NCBI GenBank assembly: GCA_017467585.1
Contig: JAFUSR010000004.1
Coordinates: 77,918 to 141,917, forward strand
Direction of reading: 5' to 3'
DNA: 64,000 nt
Source: Clostridia bacterium
GTDB lineage: Bacteria; Bacillota; Clostridia; Christensenellales; UBA1242
Positions 24,001 through 34,458 of this stretch are shown in pieces. Within the stretch, counting starts at the first letter, position 1. Each line of letters begins with the position of its first letter. The notes beneath the pieces are model-generated. The model did not search any database. It was given only the letters and a program-made list of their open reading frames with translations, and had not been told where the DNA came from. The position numbers and the translations under genes were made by a program.

Positions 24001-26588
24001 CAACCGCAAACAACTATCAAGGCGAAACATTTAACTATGCTGCAACAACAGCAGAACTTATCAACAACTCTGCAATTAATTCAGTTGTTAGCACATCTGT
24101 TTCTAGTGGTGCTTCAATTACTAAGGTTGATGCAAAAACCTTGAAGATTGTTTACACAACTTCAACAGCTAATGTAACCAGCGGTTCTGCAACGGTTAAA
24201 AACGACCCAATTTATTCAACAACAACGCTTGAACACTTAATCAGTGTAGATACTCAGGGTGCTGCAGAAGTTCACTTATACTTGCCAATCAAGAACGCAA
24301 GCGGAAAGATTCTCTATGTTCTTGACTTTTCAAACCAAGAGACTGGCGTTGACTATAACAGAACAGACTTTGCAACAAACACAAGCTCTTCAAATGGCAG
24401 CCTGGCTCTTTATAGCAGACAACAGAGCCACAAGACAACTCTTCGCTCAATCACAATTTTGGGCAAATCAATCACCAATTCAACCTATAGTTGCACAATT
24501 AATTCTGTTGTGTCTAAGATAGGTAATAAGAACGGTGGTAGTGGACTTACAAACTTCAGCTTTATCACTTATTGGGATAAAGACTATGCAGTTTCTGTCA
24601 ACTCATATTATTACTTCTATAATTTGGCATCTGTTAAACTTGGTGGCTCAGACATTGTTGGAGCAAGCAACAAGGGCATTTCAACCAACAAGCACAGATG
24701 GGGCAGTGGAACATCTGCTGTTGCATACACAACCAACAACGAATCTTCTAATGTCACAACCAACATCTATAACGCGGGAACTTACACCAACGGCAGTCTG
24801 ATGAACAAGACTCTTGCTGTAACAACCTCGTTCTCTACCTACGGAACAATTAAATATTCTGGTTATAACAGAACAACACAAACAACCGGTGTTGTTGCAA
24901 CAATCGAATATATTTCTAATGGTTCTAGCGGATTCTACAACAACGGAACATTCAACCTTTCTGCAATTTCAGATGACCTTTCTAGTCAAATGATCTTAAC
25001 TGGCTACACCAACTCTGCAACCGATGGACTTGGAGTTTGGAACTTGAACACAAACTACACAGTTTGGAGAATTCTCGCAGCAGTAATTGCAATCCAAGGC
25101 GACTATGACGTTGCAAAAGCAGATGCACAAATTCAACTCCGCGCTAACTACGAATTGTCTTCAGTATGGCTTTCATACTCAAATGGCAATGGTAAAGGCT
25201 TTGGTGAGATGGATACTTACGCATCTTCAAGCTCAAGCATAACAGTTAAGAGAAGCGCAACCGATTTGCAAGACGCAATCGACTTCTATCTTGCAAACCT
25301 TAACAGCTCAGATTGGGGCAAGGTTGCAACCCTCACAATCTATAACAGTGGTGTTGCTCTCTCTGGTGGCTTCACATTGTCTAAAGCTCTAGTTATGACA
25401 AGCGGAATGCAACTCACAATCACAACCAGACACGGCAAGGTTGTTGGCACAGGCACAGGCAAAACAACAACAATCGATGGCGGAACTCCAGCAAGAGAAA
25501 CAATCAAAATTGCTGGCTCAATCAGCATGACAGGTGCTGCTGGATTCTTCGATGTTAAGAGTGGCGCAACTCTTGCATTCACCAACATCGACTTTGATGT
25601 TGCATCATTTGCCGCAGGAACAGCAACCAAGATGTTCAACATTGGCGGAACTCTGAACATCAACAAGTCAACCAGCGGAACCGACGCAAACATCTCTAAC
25701 GACGGTGCAACTGGAACATCAACAACAGCCTACAGAACAAAAGTTACTGGTGCAACACCAGGCGGCTCAGGAATTGTTCTGTTCTATGCAAGTGGCGATG
25801 CCGCAAAGATTAACGCAGTTAACATCAACATTTCAAATCTCAAACCTGGCAATACATCTAGCACAGATGTTCTCAGAAGCATATTCGTTATCGATGGTGG
25901 TGCTCACACATTCAAGAATATCAGAATCGCTGGCGCAAGCTATGTTGGCCCAGCAATTGCAGTCAACAACACCTCAACCGGAACCGACAAAACTGTTACA
26001 TTCGAAAATGTTGTGTTTGCACCTAGTGGATACACGGAGCTCTCGTATATCGAGAGCACCGGCACCCAGTATATTAATACCGGCATAACTTCAATACCTG
26101 CTCCGTTTTCTATAGAAATCACATATCTGAAATCTAACACTAATACAAACGATCAATGTTTGTTTGGAAGCAGGCAACTTGGTAAATTTGTGAACATATA
26201 TGGTAATTATTATGAAACAGCTTTTGGTAATACTGCCTCAAATACAGCTAATGGAGATAATAACACACATACTATTTTATGTGACAGTACATCTGGGTTC
26301 TATAAGGATGGGACAAAACTAGCTACATCTTACAGCACATTAGCTAGTCGCAGTTCAACACAACCAGGGCTAATTTGCGCATTCACCGAAGAGGAATCGT
26401 TTTCGCCAAAATGGTTTTTCGTAGGAAAGATATACTATGTGAGAATAATTGTAGATGGGAAAATGTTCCACGACTTTATTCCTATGAAGCGCAATAGCGA
26501 TGGCGCAATTGGCCTCTACGACGCCGTAACCGGCACATTCTACACCAACGCTGGCACGGGCACATTCATCGCCGGCCCCGAAGTGTAA
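3..26588 (+). CDS. Giant surface-type repeat protein, 5-prime partial (more than 8,861 codons in the window). Mostly Listeria-Bacteroides (InlB B-repeat / Flg_new-type) repeats with nested accessory domains.
   Basis: One stop-free frame runs from window position 3 to TAA at 26586-26588. The ORF-track Met at 66 is internal: the same frame reads ...[22 protein letters not shown]... upstream with no stop. Many tens of roughly 65-75 aa units carry the signature Y-x-[IV]-x-[FY]-x-x-N-G-G ... P-[ST]-R-x-G-Y-T-F-x-G-W ... L-Y-A-x-W. The C-terminus (...[18 protein letters not shown]) has no LPXTG or hydrophobic anchor. Confidence 0.9.
   Translation, partial: [8861 protein letters not shown]
696..1130 (+). 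repeat. Intragenic module M, copy 1 ([50 protein letters not shown]...)
   Basis: One of four copies of a roughly 145-aa module. The first roughly 85 aa are conserved and the last roughly 55-60 aa are unrelated between copies. Confidence 0.8.
3315..4010 (+). other. LamG/concanavalin-like domain nested inside a Listeria-Bacteroides repeat, copy 1
   Basis: The host repeat opens [47 protein letters not shown] and closes [15 protein letters not shown] about 190 aa later. The insert (...[16 protein letters not shown]...[25 protein letters not shown]...[10 protein letters not shown]...[10 protein letters not shown]) has the pattern of LamG-type lectin-fold domains. The fold is assigned by pattern recognition only. 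Confidence 0.6.
4287..4725 (+). repeat. Intragenic module M, copy 2
   Basis: [52 protein letters not shown]..., followed by a copy-specific segment. Confidence 0.8.
9681..10375 (+). other. LamG/concanavalin-like nested domain, copy 2
   Basis: Paralogous to 3315-4010. It shares a 56-nt perfect match (3900-3955 = 10269-10324). The host repeat opens [45 protein letters not shown] and closes [14 protein letters not shown]. Confidence 0.6.
14227..14625 (+). other. Roughly 130-aa beta-sandwich-like insert nested in a repeat ([36 protein letters not shown]...[19 protein letters not shown]...HTLTAAW)
   Basis: It interrupts a host repeat at the same place as the LamG-like inserts, between GYTFxGW and the closing xLxAxW strand. 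I do not recognise the family and the fold is a guess. Confidence 0.4.
14916..15350 (+). repeat. Intragenic module M, copy 3
   Basis: [52 protein letters not shown]..., followed by a copy-specific segment. Confidence 0.8.
15950..16620 (+). other. LamG/concanavalin-like nested domain, copy 3 (divergent)
   Basis: The host repeat is [47 protein letters not shown] ... [15 protein letters not shown]. The insert is ...[26 protein letters not shown]...[25 protein letters not shown]...[10 protein letters not shown]...[10 protein letters not shown]. Confidence 0.55.
16908..17360 (+). repeat. Intragenic module M, copy 4
   Basis: [52 protein letters not shown]..., followed by a copy-specific segment. 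Confidence 0.8.
18655..19100 (+). other. CBM / galactose-binding-like domain candidate
   Basis: The segment [88 protein letters not shown]...[25 protein letters not shown] resembles CBM4/9-type sugar-binding modules. This is a pattern-level call only. Confidence 0.4.
19185..19760 (+). other. 'YIxSTGTQ ... [19 protein letters not shown]' domain, internal copy A, nested in a repeat
   Basis: ...[32 protein letters not shown]...[34 protein letters not shown]...HTLYARW. It is flanked by the two halves of a host Listeria-Bacteroides repeat. Confidence 0.7.
22740..26020 (+). other. Non-repetitive roughly 1,100-aa region of the giant protein, including a probable right-handed beta-helix-like stretch near 25400-26000
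   Basis: No GYTFxGW/LYAxW periodicity is visible after about 22740. The segment ...[23 protein letters not shown]...[31 protein letters not shown]...GGTLNINKS...[10 protein letters not shown]...[10 protein letters not shown]...VTFENVVF has the short alternating-strand look of parallel beta-helices. Confidence 0.45.
26025..26585 (+). other. 'YIxSTGTQ ... [10 protein letters not shown]' domain, terminal copy B
   Basis: [21 protein letters not shown]...[37 protein letters not shown]. It shares both terminal motifs with copy A, but the core is diverged. Confidence 0.7.
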
Positions 26589-26590
26589 AA

Positions 26591-26630
26591 CTTTAACAAA
26601 AAAGCATAACCAACAACGGCTATGCTTTTT
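26591..26630 (+). repeat. Direct repeat DR1 (terminator-hairpin copy) on the left flank of the GIY-YIG cassette
   Basis: ctttaacaaaaaagcataaccaacaacggctatgcttttt, compared with DR2 ctttaacaaaaaggcataaccaaatcagttatgccttttt at 27251-27290. The first 23 nt match 22/23, the loops differ, and the stems are preserved. Confidence 0.75.
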
Positions 26631-26633
26631 TTT
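26598..26633 (+). terminator. Rho-independent terminator of the giant gene
   Basis: The sequence is aaaaAGCATAaCCaacaacGGcTATGCTtttttttt, 10 nt after the stop codon. It has a stem with one internal mismatch and a T8 run. Confidence 0.7.
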
Positions 26634-26635
26634 GC

Positions 26636-26680
26636 GTCATGCTAACCGAAGTGCCAGCGGCACGGAGTGGAGAGCATCTC
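26636..26680 (+). repeat. GC-rich GTCAT...ATCTC unit, copy A
   Basis: GTCATGCTAACCGAAGTGCCAGCGGCACGGAGTGGAGAGCATCTC. The closing stem is ATGCT/AGCAT and there is an inner hairpin GTGCC-agc-GGCAC. Confidence 0.7.
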
Positions 26681-26725
26681 ATCAATCCCTTTACTTTTCT
26701 TTTGTTTATGTGCTAAACTTTTTGT

Positions 26726-27010
26726 ATGAAAAATTATTATGTGTATATCCTTACGAATAAAAATAATAGTGTTCTATATGTGGGCATAACAAACAACATA
26801 GAACGCAGAACAATGGCACATGTGTTTTTTGAAGAGAATTCTTTCTGCGCGAAATATAATATAAATAAACTTGTTTATGTTGAACAATATTTGTCTTCGT
26901 ATGATGCTATATCTCGTGAAAAACAACTTAAACATTGGGGAAGAAAAGCCAAAGAAAAGTTAATAAATTCAATTAATCCAGAGTGGAGAGATTTGTTGAA
27001 AAATGACTAA
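26726..27010 (+). CDS. GIY-YIG nuclease family protein (small stand-alone URI-domain type, COG2827-like), 94 aa
   Basis: The protein reads MKNYYVYILTNKNNSVLYVGITNNIERRTMAH...REKQLKHW. The GIY (YVY), YIG (YVG), Arg and Glu motif positions are all present. There is no Shine-Dalgarno sequence, and an extended -10 (TGcTAAACT, 26711-26719) lies 6 nt upstream of the ATG. Confidence 0.85.
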   Translation: MKNYYVYILTNKNNSVLYVGITNNIERRTMAHVFFEENSFCAKYNINKLVYVEQYLSSYDAISREKQLKHWGRKAKEKLINSINPEWRDLLKND

Positions 27011-27031
27011 TGTGTTAGAGGTTTCAGCCCC

Positions 27032-27079
27032 GTCATTCTAAGCGAAGCGACCGAACGGGAGCGTAGTCGAGAGGATCTC
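27032..27079 (+). repeat. GC-rich GTCAT...ATCTC unit, copy B
   Basis: GTCATTCTAAGCGAAGCGACCGAACGGGAGCGTAGTCGAGAGGATCTC. The closing stem is ATTCT/AGGAT, with one G-T wobble. Confidence 0.7.
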
Positions 27080-27094
27080 GTGTGTAAAGCGGCT

Positions 27095-27141
27095 GAGATT
27101 GCCACGACTACACACGCACAGCGTGTTCCGCTCGCAATGAC
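27095..27141 (-). repeat. GC-rich GTCAT...ATCTC unit, copy C (inverted orientation)
   Basis: The reverse complement reads GTCATTGCGAGCGGAACACGCTGTGCGTGTGTAGTCGTGGCAATCTC. The closing stem is ATTGC/GCAAT and there is an inner hairpin ACACGC-tgt-GCGTGT. Confidence 0.7.
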
Positions 27142-27162
27142 AATTTTTATCCTCTGCCCGCC

Positions 27163-27209
27163 GTCATTGTAAACGTCAGGAACAAAGCGACCAAAGTCGA
27201 AACAATCTC
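27163..27209 (+). repeat. GC-rich GTCAT...ATCTC unit, copy D
   Basis: GTCATTGTAAACGTCAGGAACAAAGCGACCAAAGTCGAAACAATCTC. The closing stem is ATTGT/ACAAT. The unit is itself enclosed by a 12-nt inverted repeat with one mismatch: atcctctgcccg (27149-27160) and cggacagaggat (27209-27220). Confidence 0.7.
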
Positions 27210-27220
27210 GGACAGAGGAT

Positions 27221-27240
27221 CACGCAGTCGAGAGGGTTTC
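27221..27240 (+). repeat. Partial (3-prime half) GC-rich unit, copy E
   Basis: cacgcAGTCGAGAGGgtttc matches the 3-prime half of copy B (gcgtAGTCGAGAGGatctc). Confidence 0.45.
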
Positions 27241-27250
27241 ATTCACCAAC

Positions 27251-27290
27251 CTTTAACAAAAAGGCATAACCAAATCAGTTATGCCTTTTT
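27251..27290 (+). repeat. Direct repeat DR2 (terminator-hairpin copy) on the right flank of the GIY-YIG cassette
   Basis: The sequence is ctttaacaaaaaGGCATAACcaaatcaGTTATGCCttttt. It has a perfect 8-bp stem plus a T run and probably also works as a terminator ahead of leuS. Confidence 0.75.
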
Positions 27291-27302
27291 CTTCTCAAAC
27301 AA

Positions 27303-27331
27303 TAGACAACTTTCGGCTTTTGTGTTAAACT
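27303..27331 (+). promoter_or_regulatory. Candidate sigma-A promoter for leuS
   Basis: TAGACA, 17 nt, TAAACT. An RBS (AAGAGG) lies at about 27342-27347 and the ATG is at 27356. Confidence 0.35.
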
Positions 27332-27355
27332 CTTTTTGTAAAAGAGGAAACAAAA

Positions 27356-29761
27356 ATGAAACAATACAATCCCGCCGAAATTGAGCCAAAATGGCAACAG
27401 AAATGGGAAGAAGAGCACAGGTTCGAAGTAAAAAACCACGAGCCAGGAAAAGAAAACAGATATGTTTTAATTGAATTTCCATATCCAAGTGGAAAAGGTC
27501 TTCACACTGGTCACGTTCGCAGTTATGCCGCAATGGATGCCGTTGCACGCAAACTGCGCATGCAGGGCTATAACGTGCTATTCCCTATGGGCTGTGATGC
27601 CTTTGGTCTTGAGGCAGAGAGAACAGCCATTCGCGAACACAAACTCCCACAAGAAATTGTTGCAAGAAACATTGCCATGTTCAAAAAACAACTAAAATCT
27701 GTTGGTCTTTCTGTCGATTGGAGCAGAGAGGTTAACACCAGCGACCCAAACTATTACAAATGGACACAATGGCTGTTTTTGCAGTTCTATAAGCATGGCC
27801 TTGCCGAAAAGCGTGCCATGATGGTTAACTATTGCCCAAACTGTGGCGTTCTTGCCAACGAAGAGGTTGAAGACGGAAAGTGTCTGCAATGTGGCGCTCA
27901 AACAGAACAAAGGGCAAAAAACCAGTGGATTTTAAAAATTACCAAATATGCCGAGCGCCTTGCTGACGACCTTGTTGAAACAAAATATATGCAACACATC
28001 AAAACCAGCCAAATTAATTGGATTGGCAAGAGTGAAGGCGTTGAGGTTGATTTCAAAACAACCGCAGGCGTCAATTTTTCAATTTTCACCACCTGCATCG
28101 AAACAATTTTTGGAATCACCTTTATGGTTGTTGCTCCAGAGAGCAAAATTGTTGATGACTTAAAACCATACATAACCAACTGGAACGAGGTTGAAGCTTA
28201 CCGCAAAGAAACCGCAAAAAAGAGCGAATTTGTGCGTAGCGAACTCAACAAAGACAAGTCTGGCGTTGAACTTAAGGGCGTGCTTGCCATCAACCCAGCA
28301 AATGGAAAAAAAGTTCCAATTTATGCTGGCGACTTTGTTATTGCAAGCTACGGAACTGGCGCAGTTATGGCTGTTCCAACTCACGACCAACGCGACTTTG
28401 AGTTTGCCGATAAATATGGCATTAACAAAATTCAAGTAATCAGTGGCGCAGACGTTTCTGAAAAAGCCTTCGAAAAGGGCGAATATCTCGGAAAAGGTTG
28501 CAAACTGATAAACTCTGAGGAATTTTCTGGTTTGACCGTTGAAGAGGCAAAAATTGCCATCACAGACAAACTTTCAAAGGCTGGTGTTACTCGCAAACGC
28601 CTAAACTTTAAGCTTGCCGATTGGGTGTTCTCGCGCCAACGTTATTGGGGCGAGCCAATTCCTATGATTTATTGTGAAAAATGCGGTTGGCAACCTGTTG
28701 ACGAAAAAGATTTGCCAATTGTTCTTCCAAAAACAGATAACTACGAGGCCAACAAAGAAGGCGAAAGCCCACTTGCGGAAATAAAAGACTGGGTAAACAC
28801 AACTTGTCCAAAATGTGGTGGAAAAGCCAAGCGCGAAACCGACACAATGCCTGGTTGGGCAGGAAGTTCGTGGTATTATTTGCGTTATTGCGACGCCCAC
28901 AACGACAAAGAGTTTGCAAACTTTGACGCTCTTAAGGCATGGCTTCCGGTTGGACTATATAACGGTGGAAACGAGCACACAGTTCGCCACCTTCTGTTTG
29001 CAAGATTTTGGAACAAATTTTTGTATGATATCGGTCTCAGCCCAGTGAACGAGCCATTTGAGAGCCGCGTTTCTCAAGGAATTATTCTTGGTTCAAACGG
29101 CGTTAAAATGAGCAAAAGCCTAGGCAATGTTGTTGACCCACTAGATGTTATTAAAGAATATGGTGCGGACGCACTAAGACTTTGGGAAGCATTTATTGGC
29201 GACTATTTTGAAACTGTTAGCTGGTCAGACGACGGCGTTAAATCTTGCTATAGACTTCTTAACAGAATTTGGAACATGCAACAGATGTTAACAGAAGAAA
29301 ACGTGAAAGAACTTAACTATGCCATCAACCATGCAATTGCAAAAGTTACTGACGACATCGACAACATAAAATTTAACACTGCAATTGCAGAAATAATGAC
29401 ATGCACCAACGAAATTTATAAAGTTGGAAAAATTTCAAAAGAGCAATATAAAACACTTATAACATTAATTAGCCCTTTTGCACCTCATATTGCAGAAGAA
29501 TTGTTCGTTCTTTGCGGTTTTGGCGAATTTAAAAATGCAACCTGGCCAAAGGCAGATCAAAATGCGCTTGTTTTAAACACCATTGAATTGCCAGTTCAGG
29601 TTAACGGCAAAATGAGAGGAGTGATAACTGTTTCAGCAACAGCTTCTCAAGACGAAGTTGTTGAACTTGCAAAAGCAAATTCAGAACTTTCAAGATATAT
29701 TCAAGGAACAATTCGCAAGGTTATTTATGTTCCTAAAAAGATTTTGAACATTATTGTTTAA
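27356..29761 (+). CDS. leuS: Leucine--tRNA ligase
   Basis: 801 aa. The N-terminus is YNPAEIEPKWQQKWEE...FPYPSGKGLHTGHVRSY (HIGH-type motif), followed by ...VKMSKSLGNVVDP (KMSKS), giving typical bacterial LeuRS layout. Confidence 0.97.
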   Translation: MKQYNPAEIEPKWQQKWEEEHRFEVKNHEPGKENRYVLIEFPYPSGKGLHTGHVRSYAAMDAVARKLRMQGYNVLFPMGCDAFGLEAERTAIREHKLPQEIVARNIAMFKKQLKSVGLSVDWSREVNTSDPNYYKWTQWLFLQFYKHGLAEKRAMMVNYCPNCGVLANEEVEDGKCLQCGAQTEQRAKNQWILKITKYAERLADDLVETKYMQHIKTSQINWIGKSEGVEVDFKTTAGVNFSIFTTCIETIFGITFMVVAPESKIVDDLKPYITNWNEVEAYRKETAKKSEFVRSELNKDKSGVELKGVLAINPANGKKVPIYAGDFVIASYGTGAVMAVPTHDQRDFEFADKYGINKIQVISGADVSEKAFEKGEYLGKGCKLINSEEFSGLTVEEAKIAITDKLSKAGVTRKRLNFKLADWVFSRQRYWGEPIPMIYCEKCGWQPVDEKDLPIVLPKTDNYEANKEGESPLAEIKDWVNTTCPKCGGKAKRETDTMPGWAGSSWYYLRYCDAHNDKEFANFDALKAWLPVGLYNGGNEHTVRHLLFARFWNKFLYDIGLSPVNEPFESRVSQGIILGSNGVKMSKSLGNVVDPLDVIKEYGADALRLWEAFIGDYFETVSWSDDGVKSCYRLLNRIWNMQQMLTEENVKELNYAINHAIAKVTDDIDNIKFNTAIAEIMTCTNEIYKVGKISKEQYKTLITLISPFAPHIAEELFVLCGFGEFKNATWPKADQNALVLNTIELPVQVNGKMRGVITVSATASQDEVVELAKANSELSRYIQGTIRKVIYVPKKILNIIV

Positions 29762-29784
29762 AAAATTAATTAAAAATGTAAAAA

Positions 29785-29820
29785 ATGGTGTAAATATTCG
29801 TTATTTACACCATTTATATA
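29785..29820 (+). terminator. Rho-independent terminator after leuS
   Basis: A perfect 12-bp stem, ATGGTGTAAATA-ttcgt-TATTTACACCAT, is followed by a T/A-rich tract. Confidence 0.7.
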
Positions 29821-29859
29821 TTAAAAAAACGCAAAAAATAAACAAAGGGTGATAAAAAA

Positions 29860-30357
29860 ATGATTAACATAGTTTTAATAGAACCAGAGATTCCGCAAAA
29901 TGCAGGAAACATAATCAGAACCTGTGCAGTTACTGGTGCAAAACTCTATATGGTTCGTCCGCTCGGATTTTCGCTCGACGACAAACATTACAAACGCGCT
30001 GGCCTTGATTATTTTGACAAATCTAACATAACAATTGTAAACACTTTTGATGAGATTAAAGAAATTTTCAAAGATATTCCAATTTATTATGCTTCCACAA
30101 AAGGCCAAAGGCGATATAGTGATGTTGACTACACTGATGGAGATTGTGCAATTTGTTTCGGCAGAGAAAGTTATGGAATTCGCGAAGACATTTTAAAAGA
30201 AAATTATCAAAATTGCATAAGAATTCCAATGAAAGAGAACCTCCGAAGTTTGAATTTGTCTAACAGTGTGGCGATCGTTCTCTATGAAGCCCTTAGACAA
30301 AACGATTTTGCTGGCTTAGAAACAAAAGGGCGCTTGACTGGCAGAAAAGAAGGGTAA
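29860..30357 (+). CDS. trmL: tRNA (cytidine/uridine-34 2-prime-O)-methyltransferase, SpoU/TrmL family
   Basis: 165 aa. MINIVLIEPEIPQNAGNIIRTCAVTGAKLYMVRPLGFSLDDKHYKRAGLDY...RSLNLSNSVAIVLYEALRQ aligns along its full length with E. coli TrmL (YibK) as I remember it. Confidence 0.9.
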   Translation: MINIVLIEPEIPQNAGNIIRTCAVTGAKLYMVRPLGFSLDDKHYKRAGLDYFDKSNITIVNTFDEIKEIFKDIPIYYASTKGQRRYSDVDYTDGDCAICFGRESYGIREDILKENYQNCIRIPMKENLRSLNLSNSVAIVLYEALRQNDFAGLETKGRLTGRKEG

Positions 30358-30411
30358 CTAAAGCATGCTTCAAAAACATGTTAAAAATATTAAAAAATAG
30401 TGGCAAATGAT

Positions 30412-30440
30412 TTGTAAAATTGTCATATTGAGAGTATAAT
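30412..30440 (+). promoter_or_regulatory. Candidate sigma-A promoter
   Basis: TTGTAA, 17 nt, TATAAT, upstream of the 73-aa ORF. A GGAGG RBS lies at about 30459. Confidence 0.45.
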
Positions 30441-30473
30441 GTTAGTATAAATATTTATGGAGGTAAATGTTTC

Positions 30474-30695
30474 ATGGCAGCTAAATCAGATTATTTTGGT
30501 CTTGGTTATGTTGTAAGCCTTATTCTTGCAATCATCCCTGTTACATCTTGGATTTGCGGCGTAGTAACACGTTTCCAAGAAGGAAAACTTGTTGCTGGTC
30601 TTATTAGACTTTTCTTCGGCTTTACAATCGTTTGGGTTTGCGACCTTGTTCTCATGATCGTTAGCAAACACATTCTTAGACTACTTAATGTATAG
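30474..30695 (+). CDS. Small hydrophobic protein (73 aa, two predicted TM helices), function unknown
   Basis: The gene has its own promoter, RBS and terminator. The sequence ...LGYVVSLILAIIPVTSWICGVV...LIRLFFGFTIVWVCDLVLMIV is strongly hydrophobic. Confidence 0.6.
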   Translation: MAAKSDYFGLGYVVSLILAIIPVTSWICGVVTRFQEGKLVAGLIRLFFGFTIVWVCDLVLMIVSKHILRLLNV

Positions 30696-30704
30696 TTAAA
30701 GAAA

Positions 30705-30732
30705 GAAAACACTCAAAAATTGAGTGTTTTTC
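30705..30732. terminator. Bidirectional terminator between convergent genes
   Basis: The sequence is gAAAACACTCAaaaatTGAGTGTTTTtc, with A and T runs on both sides. Confidence 0.75.
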
Positions 30733-30741
30733 TTTTGCAAA

Positions 30742-31932
30742 TTATCTGAATTTATCAAATTCAACAGAGATGTCAATTGAAACATTTTCAAGCAACTTGC
30801 TTTTGCCGTCGAGTTTTTGAATATAGTTATTCCACTCGTCTAAATTAAACATGGAGGCCAGATTTTCTACTCCAAAAATATCATAGTTTATTGATTTTGT
30901 GTAGTTAAATAATTCATAAATTCCGTTTGTGATTTTTTCTTGTGCGGCGTTGATTATTGCCTGCTGCAAATCTTTTTGAATTACTGAGCGATAAAGATTT
31001 TTATTCATTCCCTTGGTTGAAATTTCATCTATGCTTGCTTCGACTATCTTAATGTCCACGTGAAGTGTTGGGTTGTCGCCAAAGGTGACATATTTTTTTG
31101 TTTTAATATTATCAATTCTGAGGTTTATGTTTGCATTAATGGCGTCGCCAAAAGAGAAGTTTTTTAGTTGAATATTGCCTGATCTGCTTTTTTTGTTACA
31201 TAAATAAAACGCATTTATCATCTCTTTGTCTTCAATTTTGCTTGTAAAAACGCCATTTTTAAACAATTTTATTGGTGTGTTTAATTTTAGTTTTGCTTTT
31301 GATTGTTTTTCTTTGCTCTCGTTTTCTTCAGTATCTTCAAACTCAAGAGTGTCTATTTGACTAGTTGCGGATGGTTTAAAACTGTCAATTACAAATTCAA
31401 CATATGATTTATTGAGTGAGTGCATATTTTCTTCTTCTGAAATAAAAATTTTTTGCAAGCTAAGGGCAACGCCCATGTCTAACTTTCCGATTTTTTCGAT
31501 TGTTTCTTTTGCGGATTTTTCGCAAGTCAAAAGCATAATACTGTTTTTCAGTTTAAAGTTTCGAAAAAAGAAATCAAGTTCACCAACAATATTTTTGTTT
31601 TCTATTTGATTTCCAAGGAGAATAAATTCGGTGTGAGAAAGCTCGGCGTTTTTTCCAAACTTGTTGGAAATTTCGCTCATTGCCTGACTTATGGTTTCTG
31701 CGCTTGCTGAAACATGGTCAACCTGGGCATTTATTCCGCTTTCTTTTGAATTACTAGATGGAAGAACGGCTTGAGCAGTAATTTGGTAATTAGTGCCATC
31801 GAAATCGATGCCAATTCCAGAAATAATCATTCTCGTGTTTAATTCTGCTTGCGTCGATAAACTTTGAGGAAATAGTATTGCTAGGGAAATTATCAAAAAA
31901 ATCCATATATTTTTCCTTAAAAATTGCTTCAT
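30742..31932 (-). CDS. Spore germination protein, Ger(x)C family
   Basis: 396 aa and last gene of a gerA-type operon. It has a 4-nt ATGA overlap with the upstream gene and the motif ...RMIISGIGIDFDG... typical of GerAC/GerKC. No lipobox Cys is present in the N-terminal hydrophobic segment. Confidence 0.8.
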   Translation of the reverse strand: MKQFLRKNIWIFLIISLAILFPQSLSTQAELNTRMIISGIGIDFDGTNYQITAQAVLPSSNSKESGINAQVDHVSASAETISQAMSEISNKFGKNAELSHTEFILLGNQIENKNIVGELDFFFRNFKLKNSIMLLTCEKSAKETIEKIGKLDMGVALSLQKIFISEEENMHSLNKSYVEFVIDSFKPSATSQIDTLEFEDTEENESKEKQSKAKLKLNTPIKLFKNGVFTSKIEDKEMINAFYLCNKKSRSGNIQLKNFSFGDAINANINLRIDNIKTKKYVTFGDNPTLHVDIKIVEASIDEISTKGMNKNLYRSVIQKDLQQAIINAAQEKITNGIYELFNYTKSINYDIFGVENLASMFNLDEWNNYIQKLDGKSKLLENVSIDISVEFDKFR

Positions 31933-33038
31933 TTGCGCTCCTTTGTGTGTTTTTTATTCTTTAACGTGGCCAAAACGGCGCAAAAAACGCAAAATACGGG
32001 CAAAATAAGCTGTATACATAGTGAAATTACGCCAGAAATGTGCATATACCCCATGTAACTTACGCCACTGTGACTAAACAGCAAAAAATCTAAAAGATAG
32101 AGAATGACAACACTTATGATCGAGCATATGGCATAATGTTTTTTACCAAAAATGTTGTTGAGAGAATCGCTCACACAATATAGGTATGTTGAAAGCGATA
32201 ATACACTTGCTATTTGTGACAATAAAACTAAAAACCAATCTGGCCTGCCAACAGACAGGTTTAAAAGAGAAAAGGCGGATATGCTGCTAATTAAACTGGT
32301 TTGGCTGCTGGCCAGAACCGTATAAAGACAATAAAACACAATATATCCAAAAGCATAAAAAATCATCAGCCAAGCATAAATTAAAACATCAATTTGTTTT
32401 AATGCTCGTTTTGATGTGTCAATTCTGCCGAGAAGACACAAAAATATCATATAATCGCCAAACCAAATGCTGTGATTTACATAAGTTTTGCTGATTTCTG
32501 CAAAATTTGTGTTGAAAACCGGCAAAATGTTGCCAAAATCTGCAGAAAATGCACCCAAAACAACTAAAATTCCTACTGAAGCAACAATAATCACTAGGTA
32601 TAGTTCAGAACTTCTTCCTATTGTTTTCAATCCCGAAAAAGCTAAATATCCAACTGCAAAAATTAAAAATATTGAAAAAGTTTGCCAAGGAAGTGTGTCA
32701 AAAAGGTTGTTTGCAAACACATTTCTGACAGCTTCATATGGCATAAGTGCCGTAAACAAAAAATATAAAATAAGTACAAAACAAACTAATTTTGCTACAA
32801 CTTTTCCGAGTGTTTGCGATATCAAATCATAAATTGTTAAGTTTGGGCATAGATGATTTATTAAAATTGTCAGCGAAAAAAATATAATGTCAATTGCTGC
32901 TCCAAACAGCAAAACAAGCCATAGATTGTTTCCAACGTCCTCGGAAAACATGCATGGAAGTGTTTGAAGTTTGCTGCTGATTGTGCAAATTATAAACAAA
33001 AACAGAGCTTGACGTCTGGTTATGCTGAATCTATTCAT
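31929..33038 (-). CDS. Spore germination protein, GerAB/GerKB family (APC-superfamily permease-like)
   Basis: A polytopic membrane protein. I prefer the ATG at 33038 (MNRFSITRRQ...), which has GGAGG 8 nt upstream, over the TTG at 33053 given by the ORF track. Confidence 0.8.
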   Translation of the reverse strand: MNRFSITRRQALFLFIICTISSKLQTLPCMFSEDVGNNLWLVLLFGAAIDIIFFSLTILINHLCPNLTIYDLISQTLGKVVAKLVCFVLILYFLFTALMPYEAVRNVFANNLFDTLPWQTFSIFLIFAVGYLAFSGLKTIGRSSELYLVIIVASVGILVVLGAFSADFGNILPVFNTNFAEISKTYVNHSIWFGDYMIFLCLLGRIDTSKRALKQIDVLIYAWLMIFYAFGYIVFYCLYTVLASSQTSLISSISAFSLLNLSVGRPDWFLVLLSQIASVLSLSTYLYCVSDSLNNIFGKKHYAICSIISVVILYLLDFLLFSHSGVSYMGYMHISGVISLCIQLILPVFCVFCAVLATLKNKKHTKERK

Positions 33039-34458
33039 GTTTTTTGCCTCCAATGCGAGTTATGTTCTTTTTTTGAAAAACAGTTGGTCTTGTCTTTAAA
33101 TCAAGCAGTGGCTTTTTAATAATGGCATCGTGCTTATCTATTTTATTTGTTGGTGCATATGGCGACAGAAGTGGAACACCATATCCATCGGCAGAAACCA
33201 AATATGTGCTTGCCATAATAAAACTCATGAGCATGCCATAAAACCCTGCAACTCCACCAACAATAGTAAACAGAATTCTGAGCAGACTAACCTGTGGAAC
33301 GTCGTCTGGAATAATAAAGAGCATTATGCTGCTTATTGCCACAACAACAATGCTAGGTGGGCTAATTATGCCTGCTTGAACAGTGGTTTCTCCAAGAACG
33401 AGCGCGCCAATAATTGAAAGAGCCATCCCCAAAAGTTTTGGCATTCTTGCGCTTGCCTCAGCCAAAATATCAAACAAAAAAAGTACAAACAGAATTTCCA
33501 AAATTGGGGGCAAGCTAATTCCTTCAATATTGCTTAAAAGGGTCACCAAAAACACCATTGGCAAAACGCGATATTGATAGCTCTGAAGCGCCACATAAAT
33601 TCCCGGCAACAAAACACCAAGAATCAGCCCGATAAGCCTTACTATTCTTAAGAATGTCGTTCTTGCTGAAATTTGATAATAATCTTCAGGGCTTTGCAGG
33701 TCTTCAATAAGCAAAAAGGGCAGGGTTAACACAATTGGTGAGCCGTCAACGAAAATTGCAATACGCCCCTCTAGCAGTCTGCTTGAAATAACGTCTGGTT
33801 TTTCACTGTTGCCAATTCTGCGCAAAAACTTAAGTTTTCCTTCTTCTAGAATGGTCTCAATATAGTAACTATCAATAATTCCGTCTATATCTATTTTTGA
33901 AATTTTATCCTGCAAAACTTTAACAAGTTTTTTGTCGGCAATGTTGTCGAGATAAACAACACAAACGTTTGTTTTTGTGTGTCTGCCAACAACAAGTTTT
34001 TTGACGGCCAAATTTGGCGATTTAAGTCGTCTTCGAACCATGCTTAAATTAGTGTTCAAATCTTCAACAAAGCCCTCTCTAGGGCCTTTTGTGACTTGGC
34101 TTGTTGGAGGTTCTGTTATGGAGCGCACATTAAAGTCTGCAAGATTGATGCTTATGGCTTTTTTGGAGTTGTTTACAAACACAAGCGCGCTGCCAGACAG
34201 CAGCGAAGAAATAAAGTCTTTTTTGTTTTCAATGTCGCTTATTTCTGGACAAAAAATCGCTTGTTTAATATTTTTAAAAGATGCACTTTTTAAATCTGAA
34301 ATTGGTTTTAACACTGTTTGAGCAAGCAAGCTTTTATCTATCATGGAGCTCACAAAAAACACGCACACAGTTTTAGCCCCGCATGTGATTTCTCTGCAGA
34401 CAACATCATCATTATTTTTAAACCAGCTCGTTGCTAAATATTTTGAAAACACCATCAA
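33031..34458 (-). CDS. Spore germination protein, GerA/GerKA family
   Basis: 475 aa. The soluble N-domain (...ITEPPTSQVTKGPREGFVEDLNTNLSMVRRRL...) is followed by a C-terminal membrane domain, which is the classic GerAA architecture. Confidence 0.88.
   Translation of the reverse strand: MMVFSKYLATSWFKNNDDVVCREITCGAKTVCVFFVSSMIDKSLLAQTVLKPISDLKSASFKNIKQAIFCPEISDIENKKDFISSLLSGSALVFVNNSKKAISINLADFNVRSITEPPTSQVTKGPREGFVEDLNTNLSMVRRRLKSPNLAVKKLVVGRHTKTNVCVVYLDNIADKKLVKVLQDKISKIDIDGIIDSYYIETILEEGKLKFLRRIGNSEKPDVISSRLLEGRIAIFVDGSPIVLTLPFLLIEDLQSPEDYYQISARTTFLRIVRLIGLILGVLLPGIYVALQSYQYRVLPMVFLVTLLSNIEGISLPPILEILFVLFLFDILAEASARMPKLLGMALSIIGALVLGETTVQAGIISPPSIVVVAISSIMLFIIPDDVPQVSLLRILFTIVGGVAGFYGMLMSFIMASTYLVSADGYGVPLLSPYAPTNKIDKHDAIIKKPLLDLKTRPTVFQKKNITRIGGKKHE

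Follow-up and report, generated by a model that had tools for sequence, protein, structure and literature searches.

Ssn proteins are the first site-specific endonucleases found to cut single-stranded DNA (ssDNA) only; they were described in 2025 and have been proposed as ssDNA tools (Chenal et al., Nat Commun 2025, PMC11893778). SsnA is a 94-aa single-domain GIY-YIG protein that binds its target motif, the NTS (CGTCATTCCCGCGMAVGCGGGAATCYRG), solely as ssDNA and does not bind the RNA form of this motif (PMC11893778). The cut lies 3 nt 5' of the motif, as derived from the oligonucleotide lengths in that study, and cut positions differ by about 1 nucleotide among homologues. Important for cleavage is the GTC that precedes the palindrome, and for binding the C that follows it; Y6, Y17 and E64 of SsnA were mutated in the same work. 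SsnA lowers transformation by NTS-bearing DNA. Most Ssn homologues belong to Gram-negative bacteria; related hairpin repeats, the SRMs, lie near 71% of the homologue genes and on both sides of the gene in 42%. Chenal et al. described this repeat–gene–repeat layout as insertion sequence (IS)-like, and mobility was merely hypothesised (PMC11893778). Here we describe an ssn gene with its SRMs in a 64,000-nt stretch, the window, of contig JAFUSR010000004.1 from a Clostridia metagenome-assembled genome (MAG). Our data make it probable that this Ssn/SRM cassette of ~616 nt was inserted in the lineage of the window after the terminator of a giant gene, and that the whole terminator hairpin was duplicated. 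All positions refer to the window, and L-numbers denote comparison contigs or loci.

The Ssn/SRM system itself is already known, and the window contains a new member of it. With Ssn/NTS-SRM of Neisseria meningitidis the locus shares a 94-aa single-domain GIY-YIG protein with aligned catalytic Tyr/Tyr/Glu, a (C/T)GTC tag, a stem that begins with AT, a C after the palindrome, the orientation pattern of the repeats and the IS-like NTS–ssnA–NTS layout (PMC11893778). It differs from the neisserial system in its units of 45–48 nt, which combine an outer stem of 5 bp with tandem G.A pairs and an inner hairpin that varies, in the lack of motif expansion in the 64 kb of the window, in its host, a Clostridia MAG, and in the leaderless mRNA implied by the sequence. 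In addition, a filled/empty pair with a hairpin-length duplication is documented here. The window extends the Ssn family to a Clostridia MAG, and the motif there is longer and of a more complex structure than what the published search pattern covers.

The ssn gene and its hairpin repeats

The ssn gene (26726..27010, plus strand) encodes a 94-aa protein in which the GIY-YIG domain PF01541 (E 5e-15) spans residues 3–76, and a profile search found no other domain. The protein aligns without gaps with the SsnA orthologue of N. gonorrhoeae (34/85 identical residues, 40%; E 2e-21). Its residues Y7, Y18 and E65, which are invariant among 31 homologues, align with the catalytic Tyr6, Tyr17 and Glu64 of SsnA. 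The gonococcal orthologue was found in a plasmid-collection record; it has 94 aa with Y6 and Y17, and NTS copies lie immediately up- and downstream of its gene. The label Ssn is used here for SsnA and CDD cd10448 (GIY-YIG_unchar_3). Proteins of the UPF0213/YhbQ type (COG2827; BH0048, PDB 1ZG2) are also small stand-alone GIY-YIG proteins, but the window protein is far closer to SsnA and matches the structure 1ZG2 more weakly (E 1e-5, 28.6 bits). UPF0213 proteins are not known to be associated with hairpin repeats. Because of the SsnA alignment with its catalytic residues and the tag, stem and tail hallmarks of the repeats, the window gene is, judged by sequence, a member of the Ssn family, and the GC-rich "satellites" around it are its cognate SRMs. 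By homology to SsnA, the protein is predicted to have ssDNA nuclease activity. An earlier reading made from the letters of the locus (the sequence-only reading) had treated the gene as a COG2827-like orphan with no established function; this is superseded, since the Ssn family consists of characterised site-specific ssDNA nucleases (PMC11893778). The same reading had called the content GC-rich and foreign, which holds for the repeats (GC fraction 0.60 in the upstream unit and 0.52 in the downstream array, compared with 0.41 in the window) but not for the AT-rich ORF (open reading frame; 0.29).

Unit detection showed that the GC-rich repeats are copies of one structured unit, (C/T)GTC-AT-xyz...x'y'z'-AT-CTC. 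Upstream of the gene lies U1 (26634..26683, plus strand; GCGTC-AT-GCT...AGC-AT-CTC), whose CGTC tag occupies 26635-26638. Downstream, U2 (27030..27080, plus strand; CCGTC-AT-TCT...AGG-AT-CTC, with one G.T pair in the stem) forms a head-to-head doublet with U3 (27095..27143, minus strand; TTGTC-AT-TGC...GCA-AT-CTC). U4 (27149..27220, plus strand; CCGTC-AT-TGT...ACA-AT-CTC) has its core at 27161-27210, enclosed by an outer 12-bp stem (27149-27160 / 27209-27220). The array ends with a half-unit (27223..27240, plus strand), the SRM 3' half CGCAGTCGAGAGGGTTTC, which is 83% identical to the 3' half of U2 and is the last recognisable repeat ahead of the right junction at ~27247/27248. The three stem positions beside the invariant AT vary between the window units yet remain complementary, and an extra copy of U2 in strain L001 has a perfect ATCCT/AGGAT stem.

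The association of these units with ssn genes is general. The signature GTC-AT-xyz...x'y'z'-AT-C had 430 matches in 313 kb, at 86 of 93 ssn loci, compared with 33 matches in 757 kb of LeuS control loci. When pairing was not imposed, 277 of 500 GTCAT...ATCT pairs had three out of three Watson–Crick pairs at the adjacent triplet, where 1.6% was expected. The stem pair types covary across the 277 units, and tandem G.A/A.G pairs come next. The units have an invariant GTC ahead of the palindrome and an invariant C behind it, which match the positions critical for cleavage and binding in Chenal et al. At 80 independent metagenomic loci, most units in the 200 nt upstream of the gene were on the plus strand (77 plus vs 18 minus) and most of those in the 200 nt downstream on the minus strand (78 minus vs 42 plus). 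The units therefore pile up in inverted orientation, and the usual layout is that of inverted SRMs with the GTC tag outward. Other SRM-pattern matches in the 64 kb were at or below shuffle expectation (24 vs 32.5).

A candidate promoter of the cassette (26690..26719, plus strand) consists of a -35-like TTTACT at 26690-26695 and an extended -10 element TGcTAAACT at 26711-26719; its function is suggested by comparison of layouts. The closest ssn homologues, L087 (76%) and L180 (73%), are on short contigs, the latter of 604 nt. The order SRM (plus strand), AT-rich spacer of ~45-57 nt, TTTAC, TGnTAnAnT, 6 nt and ATG is collinear in the window, L087 and L180, and what lies upstream of the 76% homologue is a gene with no relation to the giant gene. 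Since both homologues share this layout in other contexts, U1 and the promoter can be regarded as part of the cassette. Only 6 nt separate the end of the -10 box from the ATG, and a Shine–Dalgarno sequence is absent (window 26709-26726, L087 ~975-994, L180 ~60-80); therefore, the ssn mRNA is probably leaderless. A duplication of ~97 nt comprising terminator and promoter (26702-26725 vs 27314-27343; local score 14, shuffles at most 12) was considered and rejected, because in the 76% and 73% homologues, in other contexts, the upstream SRM is followed by the same -35/-10/ATG layout. An exact 11-mer confined to the two promoter sites in the window leaves some doubt that the promoter is the cassette's own.

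Filled and empty sites between the giant gene and leuS

Directly after the stop codon of the giant gene, an 8840-aa ORF (66-26588), lies an intrinsic-terminator-like hairpin, copy A (26588..26633, plus strand). A second hairpin, copy B (27248..27293, plus strand), lies 660 nt downstream and ~60 nt before leuS (27356-29761). The segments 26591-26613 and 27251-27273 are 22/23 identical, the repeat can be extended to 26588-26613 / 27248-27273 (24/26 identical), and the entire hairpins are identical in 39/47 aligned columns with a 1-nt loop indel. The 23-mer CTTTAACAAAAARGCATAACCAA is confined to these two sites in the 64 kb with up to 3 mismatches, with none in 100 shuffles. Each copy folds into an A-tract, stem, loop, stem and T-run, with -12.8 kcal/mol (z-score, z, -4.9) for copy A and -15.1 kcal/mol (z -6.5) for copy B, and for neither did any of 200 shuffles fold equally well. 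Copy B carries an A>G change in its 5' arm together with the compensating T>C in its 3' arm, and it also mends the A.C mismatch of copy A. Neither hairpin was called by a simple terminator scan of the window, so that the label "terminator" rests on fold, T-run and position. Nothing else lies between the two copies than one GC-rich unit, an AT-rich spacer of 42 nt with the promoter, the GIY-YIG ORF and a GC-rich array of 237 nt. The identical arrangement recurs on 5 contigs from independent assemblies, which excludes misassembly, and all contigs with identical LeuS or SpoU proteins carry the cassette.

The best LeuS match among GTDB species representatives had 69% identity without conserved synteny, too distant for an empty-site comparison. 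Closer LeuS relatives, at 92, 88, 87, 86 and 83% identity, came from a protein search, and their contigs were compared with the window. All five related lineages keep the giant gene, leuS, a SpoU methylase gene, a 73-aa gene, GerAC and the order onward. In each of them an intergenic region of 120-178 nt between the giant gene and leuS holds a single terminator hairpin and the leuS promoter, with a conserved block of TAGACA, 17 nt and TTTTGTG(C/A)TAA. The corresponding leuS promoter of the window, found by a promoter scan (TAGACA, 17 nt, TGtTAAACT; 27303..27331, plus strand), is host sequence. The loci of the five relatives contain no GIY-YIG gene, and SRM-pattern matches in them were outside the intergenic region only and at chance level.

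The hairpin of the closest lineage (L182/L183) agrees with copy A in 44/44 positions, including the loop (26588-26631 vs L182 4892-4935). Homology between the window and the empty site stops after the sixth T (26631) and resumes at copy B, which is the start of a 78%-identical block (27248-33995) collinear with the spacer, leuS promoter, Shine–Dalgarno sequence and leuS of L182. Copy B itself matches the L182 hairpin in 38/47 columns (81%), and its flanks match at 52/65 and 31/41. Compared with the empty site, the window has ~616 extra nt (26632-27247) and a second hairpin of 44-46 nt. The left junction, 26631/26632, is placed exactly 3 nt 5' of U1's CGTC tag, which is the predicted Ssn cut, in this single case. 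One gain of the cassette in the lineage of the window is more parsimonious than losses elsewhere. The sequence-only reading had the duplicated hairpin right in position, in its 22/23 match and 660-nt spacing, and in the stem and T run of both copies. Its proposal of an insertion in the giant-gene/leuS intergenic region, with a terminator hairpin on both sides, is supported by the empty-site comparison. The empty site that it predicted (giant gene, single hairpin, leuS) exists in the five lineages, with the 44/44 match to copy A in the closest, and the hairpin is no generic terminator family within the 64 kb, where it occurs twice. A second filled/empty pair was sought in Rhizobium plasmids, where the left flank is an IS4 element and gave no clean comparison.

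The present comparison is clean in that the insertion point is 3 nt 5' of the motif tag and the duplication is exactly one host terminator hairpin. In the literature searched, we found neither an insertion footprint of this kind with a match to the expected cut site nor a follow-up on Ssn mobility, and nothing on small GIY-YIG, COG2827 or YhbQ proteins with repetitive extragenic palindromes (REPs) or on the repeat sequence itself. The mobility of Ssn cassettes, formerly a guess, becomes a concrete testable model.

In the proposed model, the cassette has the order SRM (plus strand), promoter, a probably leaderless 94-aa gene and an SRM array (plus, minus, plus, half unit). By homology to SsnA, the protein would bind the SRM hairpin in ssDNA only, with its cut falling ~3 nt 5' of the (C/T)GTC tag. 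In this lineage the cassette would have entered directly behind the T-run of the intrinsic terminator of the giant gene, and the junction suggests that its left end was defined by an Ssn cut. Integration may have taken place at the foot of the extruded terminator hairpin, where staggered breaks at both feet followed by fill-in would duplicate the hairpin. Copy A would keep terminating the giant gene, and copy B, having drifted with its stem kept and improved, is now placed where it could terminate the ssn transcript. The role of the system might be restriction or modulation of incoming, transforming or replicative ssDNA, as in Neisseria. A broader proposal is that Ssn cassettes are autonomous mobile elements with a new mechanism, in which an ssDNA copy is released 3 nt 5' of the terminal SRM and integrated at the foot of an extruded hairpin, and repair duplicates the hairpin. 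We regard this as speculative and rather unlikely. If it were true, terminator hairpins would be preferred landing sites for Ssn cassettes, and the element would gain a terminator behind itself while that of the host gene is left intact.

Several observations weigh against an insertion of a mobile Ssn cassette as outlined here. GIY-YIG enzymes hydrolyse DNA but do not join it, which leaves integration as a step with no known catalyst. A target duplication of 44-46 nt far exceeds, to our knowledge, the duplications made by known transposases. At its right end the cassette has a plus-strand half unit, with the nearest inverted SRM 100 nt further in. Copy A and the L182 hairpin are identical although the DNA next to them shows 76-80% identity, which could reflect strong constraint, parallel change or exchange between lineages. 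With an insertion sequence or autonomous transposon the locus shares filled and empty sites and a target duplication, atypical in length, but it lacks matching terminal inverted repeats and is present in one copy in 64 kb. No second ssn gene and no further SRM copy lies elsewhere in the window; further GIY-YIG paralogues between duplicated hairpins, for which the sequence-only reading proposed a search, are therefore missing there, and ongoing mobility is unsupported within the window. The repeats themselves also raise points of doubt. As DNA, the U2–U3 doublet folds at -21.6 kcal/mol (z -1.8) and U4 at -10.7 kcal/mol (z -2.3), and single-unit folds of U1–U4 are no better than shuffles (z -0.4 to -2.3). 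For this reason the unit structure is supported by cross-locus covariation and not by energy. The published degenerate SRM pattern, HGTCWYN(0-2)YYVSBRHN(0-5)WNVSBRGN(0-2)RNCYNB, has 0 matches in the window, L001, L087 and L180, and matches at only 4 of 80 homologue loci. This pattern spans at most ~35 nt, and the window units, with their inner variable hairpin, are longer (45-48 nt) than it permits. It is narrower than the Ssn family and is a search heuristic, not a family definition. Since it misses the longer motifs, pattern-based surveys probably undercount SRMs. On the supporting side, array length varies between near-identical strains: the window and L001 differ by 1 SNP (single-nucleotide polymorphism) in 20 kb, yet by a 149-nt indel in the SRM array, an extra U2–U3 module in L001. 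Collapse of a tandem repeat during short-read assembly could, however, account for this difference.

Other explanations for the duplicated hairpin and the repeats

Local duplication is common around ssn genes. After masking of SRMs, direct repeats above the null maximum flanked the gene at 16 of 55 ssn loci, and these were mostly repeat-plus-spacer modules. When target duplications were sought beyond the outermost repeats at 43 loci, there were 3-4 positives, two of which were again repeat-plus-spacer modules. Tandem copies of the whole ssn gene occur ~560-600 nt apart in L117 (2001-2866) and L158 (2001-2822). In an unrelated, GC-richer organism, a SelU–ssn–acetyltransferase locus is conserved across many assemblies (L088-L097). 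In L088 (2130-2380, 2860-3400) it carries tandem arrays of half-SRMs, with a period of 18 nt and ~30 copies downstream and a period of 25 nt and ~9 copies upstream, and the copy number differs by hundreds of nt between the assemblies of L088-L097. These arrays look like the result of repeated breakage and re-priming at the motif. As a separate observation, modules of an SRM and a spacer of 42-66 nt, sometimes with a second inverted SRM, flank ssn on both sides in L171 (1864-2371) and L149 (1815-2445). These composite modules resemble REPIN/BIME-like units copied locally.

Because local duplication is so common, it is possible, although clearly less probable than an insertion that duplicated its target, that the second hairpin is a by-product of local duplication or slippage, or that it arrived with the cassette by recombination from a cassette-bearing relative. 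The cassette would remain an insertion in this case, but the second hairpin would carry no target information. The flanking repeats at the masked loci, the whole-gene tandem copies in L117 and L158, and the half-unit arrays and the 149-nt module that vary in copy number between strains all fit such an origin. Moreover, copy B shares a GGCAT...ATGCC stem and a CAAAT loop with the hairpin of L186, the 88% relative (~2878-2912), and copy A is that of L182, which different origins of the two copies would explain. However, the duplicated segment in the window is exactly the host terminator hairpin and contains no SRM, the two copies abut both ends of the inserted DNA, the left junction is the predicted Ssn cut, and the empty site has exactly one copy. 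The direct repeats at other ssn loci also bear on the idea of the sequence-only reading that a terminator hairpin is the general target; being mostly repeat-plus-spacer modules and not terminators, they do not bear it out.

A second alternative reverses the direction of change. The cassette could be ancestral and the relatives could have lost it by precise excision, through recombination between the hairpin copies. Direct repeats of 44-46 nt could mediate such a scarless deletion, and copy B is as diverged as its unconstrained flanks, so the duplication is not recent. This history is nevertheless improbable. It needs a loss in all five sampled lineages, or a gain followed by a loss on the branch of the window and L182, compared with one gain for the insertion. 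The L182 hairpin is wholly of the A type, which would force the crossover into its final few Ts. In the relatives further away, the terminator sequences are unrelated and repeat remnants are absent.

The GC-rich units might also be mainly RNA elements, for example stabilisers or attenuators in the 3' untranslated region of ssn or leuS, with which the GIY-YIG protein has nothing to do. The units lie inside the predicted ssn transcript, their stems covary and have tandem G.A pairs, and elements of the REP type are known as RNA stabilisers and terminators (PMC3733652). On the other hand, SsnA fails to bind its motif as RNA, and units are found on both strands around the gene. In the stems, G.T and A.C combinations were about equally frequent (9 vs 8), with no strand bias; these counts by themselves do not discriminate between an RNA or single-strand reading and a duplex reading. 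Rfam gave nothing relevant at the locus at a permissive threshold or in 20 homologue loci at the gathering threshold. We consider a primarily RNA-based role of the units quite improbable. Least of all do we expect a classical free-standing GIY-YIG homing endonuclease that cuts the intron-less or empty allele as double-stranded DNA and is copied by repair: the GIY-YIG domain and the presence/absence polymorphism between lineages would suit it, but the protein has 94 aa, no DNA-binding domain, a chromosomal intergenic context and clear homology to SsnA instead, its best NCBIfam match to group I intron endonucleases (TIGR01453) reaches 19.5 bits against a cut-off of 56, and homing produces no target duplication.

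Related repeat systems and further observations

The SRM units of the window resemble the CGTC-tagged REPs described by Di Nocera et al. (BMC Genomics 2013, PMC3733652), which include Neisseria dRS3 and Rickettsia RPE-4/-6. Both have an unpaired CGTC/TGTC tag, stems that nearly always start with A-T and T-A, a short unpaired tail and head-to-head dimers. No dedicated transposase or enzyme was found for the CGTC-tagged REPs in that study. They differ from the window units in their stems of 8-9 bp, loops of 4-5 nt and tens to thousands of dispersed copies (PMC3733652). The window has instead a composite stem, made up of an outer stem of 5 bp, an internal loop and a hairpin inside it, in 4-5 copies that are all beside the nuclease gene in the 64 kb.

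A single-copy nuclease gene between inverted hairpin repeats is also found in REP/REPIN-RAYT systems (Y1 HUH) and in IS200/IS605. As in those systems, the hairpins would be recognised in ssDNA and cut at an adjacent position, and the repeats occur as doublets or arrays. The enzymes of those systems differ in having an unrelated catalytic fold, that of HUH tyrosine enzymes with a covalent intermediate, whereas GIY-YIG enzymes are hydrolases, and the tag is GTAG in the former and CGTC here. IS200/IS605 elements insert without target duplication, unlike the window, where 44-46 nt are duplicated. Homing endonucleases of the I-TevI type have a DNA-binding domain and are located in introns or phages, whereas the window protein is a nuclease domain only and is encoded in a chromosomal intergenic region.

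An SRM unit can also be read as protein. In L098 (3001-3060; protein P0007), the N-terminal extension of a homologue from the candidate phyla radiation, MPTSVIASPPTGGRSNL..., is a translated SRM unit. It is probable that such units give rise to many ORF calls in metagenomes that are spurious or too long.

The giant gene upstream of the cassette (66-26588) is a single ORF of 8840 aa composed of modules of the Flg_new (Listeria-Bacteroides repeat) type, and on contig L001 it is called as 18,679 aa. Its nucleotide identity with the L182 relative is 64-67%, compared with 78% for leuS. In the window it ends with a C-terminal domain of ~190 aa (SYIESTGTQYINTG...GTGTFIAGPEV). In L182/L183 (4820-4892) the giant gene ends earlier, and a remnant of this C-terminal domain, LSYIESTGTFIAGSKV with its own stop, follows the stop codon. 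This remnant indicates an internal deletion between short repeats in the giant gene of L182/L183.

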